From a virus (Duplodnaviria > Heunggongvirae > Uroviricota > Caudoviricetes), in IMG/VR virus record IMGVR_UViG_2526164690_000049: a DNA stretch of 10,763 nucleotides. The stretch is one strand, 5' to 3'. Under the pieces are notes generated by a model that had not been told where the DNA came from, made no database searches, and saw only the letters and a program-made list of their open reading frames with translations. The translations under genes and the position numbers were made by a program. This document shows, piece by piece, positions 5,105-5,336 of the stretch (positions within the stretch are counted from its first letter, which is position 1; every line of letters starts with the position of its first letter).

Positions 5105-5336
5105 CCCTTCACCTGTTCACCTTTTGATATTTTATCTTTTAATTCATAATGTTAAGGGGTGAACAGTTTCACAAAAACTATTCACCAACTATTCACCACT
5201 GTTCACCCTTGAAGCTCAATAAACAATCAAAAAGGTGAACAGTGAATAGTTTGGTGAACAGTTCATAAATAACTGTTCACCCTATAACATACTGATACAA
5301 AAGATATTTATGACAGGGTGAACAGTGGTGAACAGT
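5105..5336. repeat. Replication origin-like iteron array (GGTGAACAG / CTGTTCACC repeats) with AT-rich unwinding-type stretch
   Basis: CTGTTCACC at 5113-5121, 5200-5208 and 5272-5280; GGTGAACAG at 5158-5166, 5233-5241, 5252-5260, 5317-5325 and 5327-5335; variant ACTATTCACCA in tandem at 5177-5187 and 5188-5198; GTGAATAG at 5242-5249. AT-rich segment at 5122-5155. Lies directly 3' of the primase/helicase gene. The core TGTTCACC is, from memory, the phage P4 type I iteron. Confidence 0.75.

Follow-up and report, generated by a model that had tools for sequence, protein, structure and literature searches.

A candidate replication origin with P4-type iterons in a capsid-forming phage-inducible chromosomal island of Escherichia coli

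The repeat cluster and its setting

The stretch of DNA considered here (10,763 nucleotides of a virus of the Caudoviricetes, IMG/VR record IMGVR_UViG_2526164690_000049; hereafter the window) is 99.9% identical to islands present in O157 and O111 chromosomes and, as judged from its gene plan, the island is an E. coli capsid-forming phage-inducible chromosomal island (cf-PICI). Next to a minus-strand gene (5349–7166) for an initiator protein related to the alpha protein of P4, it carries a cluster of short repeats, or iterons, that constitutes a candidate origin of replication. The cluster occupies the 287-bp gap (5062–5348) that precedes the next minus-strand open reading frame (ORF), which starts at 5061, and a distance of 13 nt separates the end of its last iteron from the stop codon (5349–5351) of the initiator gene; an earlier note on this DNA had thus correctly assigned it to a location immediately 3′ of that gene.

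The nonamer GGTGAACAG is present in eight exact copies in the window, every one of which lies within 5113–5335, and the entire cluster (5105–5335) comprises 12 repeats, i.e., these eight, three T variants (GTGAATAG) and one degenerate copy (GGTGAAGGG), in keeping with the approximately ten copies in both orientations previously noticed. Taking as the strand of each copy that on which GGTGAAYAG reads, the minus-strand iterons are located at 5105–5113 (the degenerate copy), 5113–5121 (exact), 5178–5186 and 5189–5197 (T variants), 5199–5207 and 5273–5281 (both exact) and the plus-strand iterons at 5158–5166, 5234–5242, 5253–5261, 5317–5325 and 5327–5335 (all exact) and at 5241–5249, the latter being a variant (AGTGAATAG) that overlaps the copy at 5234–5242. 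Tandem spacings of 10–11 bp, likewise mentioned in the earlier note, are found at 5178/5189/5199 (11, then 10 bp), 5317/5327 (10 bp) and 5105/5113. The octamer GTGAAYAG is matched 12 times in the window as compared to an expected 0.47, 11 of these 12 matches falling inside 5113–5335, and none of 200 shuffles gets to 12; similarly, the densest 240-bp interval contains 11 GTGAAYA cores, the maximum attained in 1000 shuffles being 3. A chance origin of the repeats is ruled out by these shuffles.

Internal organization of the cluster

The cluster consists of two modules of ~110 bp, placed head to head in inverted orientation with a dyad centre at about 5220. The right, gene-proximal module (5230–5340, plus strand), which resembles P4 ori1, contains three direct iterons (5234–5261, plus strand), one inverted iteron (5273–5281) followed by the conserved motif CCTATAACATACTGA, a 35-bp AT-rich spacer (5282–5316) and a final pair of direct iterons with 10-bp spacing (5317–5335, plus strand). 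The left, gene-distal module (5101–5212, minus strand) displays the same layout in inverted form, with its three direct iterons at 5178–5207 (minus strand), its inverted iteron at 5158–5166, its AT-rich spacer at 5122–5157 and an outer pair at 5105–5121 (minus strand) made of the degenerate and of an exact copy; the modules, the inverted arrangement of which shows up in the inverted repeats I1 and I2, are 78% identical to each other.

The AT content of the cluster region is 66%, vis-à-vis 50% for the whole window, and reaches 83% in the left spacer and 74% in the right one, both of which are candidate DNA-unwinding elements, and 73% in the central 26-bp spacer (5208–5233) that harbors the dyad centre. 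The earlier note had envisaged a single set of iterons surrounding a single AT-rich stretch, whereas the alignment shows two inverted ori1-like modules, each with its own spacer. The 30-mers with the lowest stability in the window lie precisely in the two spacers: 5127–5156, on the left, is the least stable (dG −28.7) and 5282–5311, on the right, the second least stable (dG −29.9), the window mean being −41.4 with a standard deviation of 3.5. Furthermore, when folded as single-stranded DNA, the segment 5095–5345 yields one long imperfect hairpin (dG −52.7 kcal/mol, z=−9.3).

Neither DnaA boxes nor an integration host factor (IHF) consensus nor GATC sites or their clustering were detected in the origin region, and no Rfam family has a match in the window. 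Beyond the last iteron of the left module, an AT-rich block (5078–5104, minus strand, GGGTTAAAACGCAAAAATTTTAATTTAC) is conserved across genera in an alignment of 14 origins; this block, which has no sigma-70-like match, may belong to the origin or else serve as the promoter from which the following genes (81-aa ORF, ssb and perC) are transcribed. A packaging site was considered and set aside, given that the terminase genes are found at the island's far end and that the structure encountered here is that of an origin.

The same data bear on the possibility that the repeats act mainly as an operator or copy-control element, initiator binding serving to repress or insulate the transcription that runs from rep into ssb, perC and the capsid genes, or to handcuff copies of the island. 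Iterons also serve copy control in many plasmids, and the early and the downstream genes, all of which are on one strand, have a single intergenic gap between them, which is occupied by the cluster. On the other hand, neither a sigma-70-like promoter nor an intrinsic terminator was found in 4900–5500, the stability minima located between phased iterons and the collinearity with ori1 described below are features of origin anatomy, and the homologous region of the island EcCICFT073 behaves as an origin (PMC6092414). A predominantly regulatory function is accordingly quite improbable, although a regulatory role could exist alongside that of an origin.

Comparison with ori1 and crr of P4

The alpha protein of P4 binds type I iterons. 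In the P4 reference (NC_001609, the GenBank record with "ori type 1 repeat" features) these repeats are annotated both in ori (9310–9413) and in crr (4291–4590), the latter being situated immediately 3′ of alpha (stop at 4636), and in both places they read GGTGAACAG / TGTTCACC, which is exactly the nonamer of the window; the identification, in the earlier note, of the core with the octamer recognized by alpha in ori and crr is thus borne out. The likeness extends beyond the single iteron, the 20-mer GGGTGAACAGTGGTGAACAG being exactly common to P4 9309–9328 and to window 5316–5335, where it covers the final pair of the right module.

When 5225–5345 (plus strand), 5095–5215 (reverse complement) and P4 ori1 were aligned, both modules of the window proved collinear with ori1, the common order being three direct iterons, ~10 nt, an inverted iteron with CC-TTTAAC-TACTG, an AT-rich spacer of ~35 bp and two direct iterons 10 bp apart. 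The right module is 78% identical to ori1 9306–9418 over 107 aligned nt (z=12.9) and the left module 72% identical (z=13.5), so that the comparison with P4 suggested in the earlier note ends in an identical nonamer and a module identity of 72–78%. Given this collinearity and these identities, together with that of 78% between the halves, the cluster can be described as two ori1-like modules arranged head to head. With the crr repeats, which align with part of a module, the identity amounts to 68–70% and z to 6–8; by this measure, each half of the cluster is closer to P4 ori1 (z about 13) than to crr.

These figures are relevant for the alternative that the cluster is nothing but a crr-like cis-acting enhancer, initiation taking place elsewhere in the island or at an origin of the helper phage. 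Indeed, the P4 element immediately 3′ of alpha is crr and not ori, and to this extent the word "origin" used by the earlier note for a sequence in this position is at variance with P4, even though the ori1-like nature of each half upholds it. However, a scan of the whole island detected no second, crr-like cluster, of the kind that the earlier note proposed to look for, either in the window or in the full 14.8 kb, whereas P4 yields two under the same scan; the single cluster means that the island has no separate crr. Furthermore, the homologous region of EcCICFT073, together with its gene, sufficed for plasmid maintenance, and this maintenance is impaired by mutation of rep or deletion of ori (PMC6092414). 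The relatives of P4 alpha point in the same direction. Full-length alphas endowed with a primase (~810 aa with zinc finger and EGYATA motif; Xenorhabdus and Photorhabdus) have a single palindromic cluster 3′ of the gene, and no second cluster was found among 42 full-length alpha relatives within ~2.6 kb on either side (flanks of about 3 kb), P4 alone showing one in this sample. It follows that the split ori/crr arrangement of P4 may be the exception among alphas, and that a role of the present cluster as a mere enhancer is highly improbable.

As to the overall relationship, the window system shares with P4 the 9-bp iteron, modules collinear with ori1, an initiator that combines a superfamily 3 (SF3) helicase with a C-terminal origin-binding domain, the location of an iteron element right behind the 3′ end of the gene, and the lack of DnaA boxes. 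Since the iteron is identical and the adjacent protein is a homologue of alpha across both the helicase and the origin-binding domain, the assignment to the P4-type replicon lineage put forward in the earlier note is supported. In the window the origin is a single compact unit composed of a pair of inverted modules, whereas P4 has its ori1 ~2.3 kb upstream of alpha and crr, in the form of two direct 120-bp repeats, downstream of it. P4 also possesses type-2 repeats, Cnr (DUF5375) and a primase domain with zinc finger and EGYATA motif, none of which exists in the window system: no type-2 repeat was found in the window, no Cnr homologue was found, and the upstream ORFs have no BLASTP or Pfam similarity to P4 ORF106. 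Finally, P4 is a psu-sid-delta satellite of P2, whereas the element in the window, a cf-PICI, has an HK97-type capsid of its own.

The initiator protein

The initiator is 605 aa long if translation starts at ATG 7166 and 610 aa long if it starts at GTG 7181, the residue numbers given here being those of the 610-aa form. It matches the Pfam families D5_N, DUF5906 and Pox_D5 C-terminal domain and is 48% identical to P4 alpha over residues 118–600 (483 aa), which encompass the helicase and the C-terminal origin-binding domain; its Walker A motif, GPGGSGKS, is invariant in the protein alignment. The C-terminal domain (residues 502–598; 5388–5678, minus strand) is homologous to the winged-helix domain of P4 alpha (PDB 1KA8, E=1e-24 by phmmer) and contains the segment EYGREYMKRKTKHGLRSNV, which fits the pattern of every locus having GTGAAYA iterons. 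This segment is presumably placed on the "wing", as can be surmised from the topology of winged-helix domains and the homology with 1KA8; a single-sequence AlphaFold2 (AF2) model of the domain has a pLDDT of 35.6.

The N-terminal part is of a different nature. No Pfam or NCBIfam family matches its first ~140 aa, and the domain formed by residues 15–137 (6771–7139, minus strand), which has a Toprim-like fold devoid of the conserved acidic residues, differs from the primase domain of P4: the zinc finger and the EGYATA Toprim motif of the P4 primase are absent from the initiator. Because of this absence, the name "primase/helicase" applied to the gene in the earlier note is probably a misnomer. 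A profile comparison of the N-terminal domain with the P4 primase region gave a probability of 4.8%, a value that speaks neither for nor against a relationship. The N-terminal domain shares 69% identity with that of the EcCIEDL933/Sakai Sp7 initiator, a protein unrelated in its other parts, and also occurs fused to RepA/AAA_25 helicases, and on these sequence relationships it is itself mobile.

Covariation of iterons and origin-binding domain

The relatives examined comprise 80 genomic loci, whose initiators are 60–86% identical to that of the window, plus phage and plasmid matches, for 88 related loci altogether, and in every one of them a repeat cluster is found not more than 450 bp 3′ of the initiator gene. 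Four iteron classes can be distinguished, and these partition perfectly with a short segment following the third helix of the C-terminal domain. The class GTGAAYA (65 loci, including P4 and the window) goes with a segment ending in KRKTKHGxRSN; GTAGAYA (six loci, its iteron being found also in EcCICFT073) with a 5-residue insertion and the ending KRKQCTRGPDKGRTISN; GTGGAGA (eight loci) with IRKKSTKGNMRSN and GYGGACA (four loci) with KKAESKKKATRGRIQSN. The palindromic layout of two inverted modules is kept in all four classes. The more distant Serratia phage Scapp (37% identity) has the iteron GAAAAGTGCAA instead. In the 14-origin alignment, the identity across genera is 0.74 for the iteron columns and 0.61 for the spacer columns (p=8e-4). 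Among the in-silico data, the covariation of iteron and segment is the strongest indication that the C-terminal domain reads the repeats.

Other satellite origins

The origins of Gram-negative PICIs have been reported to follow rep directly on its 3′ side and to consist of an AT-rich region surrounded by sets of iterons (Fillol-Salom et al. 2018, PMC6092414). The account given in the earlier note should accordingly be amended in that an origin of such position and organization had already been described and tested for these islands. In the same paper this organization is said to be shared by no other known replicon and P4 is treated as a separate lineage. EcCICFT073 (coordinates from the supplement of PMC6092414) has the gene order DUF4222, rep, ori, small ORF, ssb and perC in common with the window island; its initiator is 48% identical to that of the window (about 75% in the N-terminal domain) and its origin, likewise two inverted modules around AT-rich spacers, takes up the gap that directly follows the gene on its 3′ side. 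The two systems differ in their iterons (GGTAGACAG/GGTAGATAG in EcCICFT073 as opposed to GGTGAACAG in the window) and in the C-terminal segment (ITRKVKGVTQTN as opposed to MKRKTKHGLRSN); moreover, EcCICFT073 is a classical PICI that uses helper capsids, whereas the window island is capsid-forming.

EcCIEDL933/Sakai Sp7, the prototype cf-PICI, resembles the window island in its general plan, its morphogenesis genes, the position of the origin immediately 3′ of the "primase" gene and the N-terminal 140 aa of the product of this gene, to which the identity mentioned above is confined. The rest of the initiator is unrelated and the origin (locus positions 6740–7085 of Sakai Sp7) comprises some twelve TAACCCGCA / TGCGGGTTA repeats, which occur in both orientations. 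The window island thus carries a different replication cassette, of P4-alpha type, and cf-PICIs have at least two unrelated rep-ori cassettes.

In Staphylococcus aureus pathogenicity islands (SaPIs), too, the origin served by Pri-Rep directly follows the 3′ end of the rep gene and has an AT-rich region with sets of iterons on its flanks, and the SaPI5 primase-helicase (PDB 7OLA) matches the helicase core of the window initiator (E=1e-10); the SaPIs differ in belonging to a Gram-positive lineage, in their DNA-binding domain and in their iterons, which are regarded as unrelated with no DNA-level comparison behind this statement. Full-text searches returned no paper in which TGTTCACC is paired with "iteron", and both the cf-PICI paper and the EcCIMP1 paper are silent on the origin.

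The island and its distribution

The complete element, as found in NZ_AP018488, is ~14.8 kb long and inserted in tqsA. Its order according to RefSeq is int, a helix-turn-helix (HTH) regulator, an Icd-like gene, DUF4222, the initiator gene, the iteron cluster, the 81-aa ORF, ssb, perC and then the morphogenesis genes for HK97-type capsid, protease, portal, adaptors, HNH, TerS and TerL, with neither tail nor lysis genes; a Pfam Phage_capsid match lies in the window. No psu, delta, sid or epsilon is annotated anywhere in the island, no dedicated profile search for them having been run, and with this qualification the element agrees with the description of its head genes, in the earlier note, as HK97-like and not P2-dependent. 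The ssb gene (4409–4819, minus strand; Pfam SSB, E=4e-17) encodes a single-stranded DNA-binding protein (SSB), is found in the same gene order in EcCICFT073 and Sakai Sp7, and its product is a likely replication accessory.

A PerC-family regulator is encoded downstream of ssb at 4126–4518 (minus strand; Pfam E=8e-44), and PICI-encoded PerC homologues have been reported as activators of the LEE pathogenicity island (PMC6092414). A large ORF of 308 aa (8005–8931, minus strand), flanked by the gene for the HTH regulator and the Icd-like gene, has no Pfam, NCBIfam or PHROG match and is annotated by RefSeq in the O157 genome only in part, as a pseudogene (locus positions 17375–17932).

Of 5426 complete E. 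coli genomes, 594 (about 11%), O157 and O111 strains among them, contain the 287-bp region 5062–5348, which is unannotated in all 594. A single genome can contain it in up to six places, O157:H7 PV15-279 having two, which means that several islands with the same initiator specificity can coexist in one cell. The same rep and ori, 98.3% identical, are found on the closed circular 10,790-bp "plasmid" pZ1323HEC0475-3 (NZ_CP148328.1), which is an entire classical PICI with int, alpA, an icd-like gene, DUF4222, the initiator, the origin and a ClpP-capsid fusion gene. This record suggests an episomal or excised form captured by the assembly, and the occurrence of the cassette in a classical PICI at this level of identity indicates that rep-ori is exchanged between PICI types.

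Could the island be in decay and the cluster no more than what is left, in inactive form, of a P4-like replicon? Many satellite-like islands of E. coli are defective and the initiator is devoid of a primase active site. However, the initiator gene is intact, the set of integrase, replication and packaging genes is complete, 494 genomes contain the 287-bp region with an identity of 95% or more, the iterons are better conserved than the spacers across genera and the covariation between protein and DNA implies continuing selection; a relic is hardly credible.

Function of the cluster and proposed mechanism

Taken together, these data make it very likely that 5101–5340 is the vegetative replication origin of the ~14.8-kb cf-PICI and that its initiator is the product of the minus-strand gene 5349–7166. 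Several points weigh against this interpretation. The TIGR01613 model ("primase, P4 family") scores the initiator at 97.4 bits, below the curated cut-off of 108.7; no primase active site can be recognized in the protein, which may thus not be self-sufficient; P4 itself cannot do without both ori and crr, two cis sites distant from each other, whereas the island has a single cluster; the sample in which covariation was seen is phylogenetically structured, with few independent switches (roughly 4–6); and the circular "plasmid" record could represent an excised, non-replicating form. Moreover, the origin function of this particular sequence is something that we infer. Because its protein-binding repeats are the same 9-bp repeats as those of P4, the cluster is very probably a further representative of an origin type already known, the one with P4-type iterons, in the position and with the layout of a PICI origin, and is best filed as a cf-PICI origin with a P4-alpha-type replication cassette minus the primase domain.

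A plausible course of events can be envisaged. Upon induction the alpha-like protein would be made and its C-terminal winged-helix domain would bind the 11–12 GGTGAAYAG iterons, phased by 10–11 bp in the two inverted modules; cooperative binding to both modules would then load the SF3 helicase in both orientations, which would make replication bidirectional, with melting of the AT-rich spacers at 5127–5156 and 5282–5311. Since the initiator has no zinc-finger/EGYATA primase and its Toprim-like domain is deprived of the conserved acidic residues, priming would probably be left to host DnaG, aided by the island SSB. Eventually, host Pol III would copy the excised circle, which would be packaged into the island's own HK97-type capsids.

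Evolutionary implications

On the alignments, P4 ori1 is one module of the PICI-origin type, and a broader evolutionary scheme can be proposed, which in its entirety is tentative and rather doubtful. The PICI origin and P4 ori1/crr would derive from one iteron module of ~110 bp travelling with an alpha-type helicase/origin-binding cassette, and this cassette would move among P4-like elements, PICIs and cf-PICIs, swapping its N-terminal domain and its iteron specificity on the way. P4-like satellites co-resident with the window island would cross-fire or compete at each other's origins, resulting in cross-talk or incompatibility, inasmuch as the island has the exact iteron of P4 and a P4-like recognition segment. 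Lastly, the primase-less initiator would depend on host DnaG, and the long hairpin formed by the dyad of the origin might serve it as a signal for priming.

The new points of the present analysis are modest, namely that the two halves of a PICI origin both show homology to P4 ori1, that the iteron variant and the C-terminal domain covary, and that iterons identical to those of P4 imply a possible cross-talk with P4-like satellites. The four natural specificity classes, with a covarying segment and an unchanged layout, offer a ready system for the study of initiator–DNA recognition and code switching. The cis-acting origin would be pinned down for a lineage of cf-PICIs whose replication cassette is of P4-alpha type, unlike that of the prototype EcCIEDL933 with its unrelated initiator and TAACCCGCA repeats, and the literatures on P4 and PICI origins, kept apart so far, become linked.
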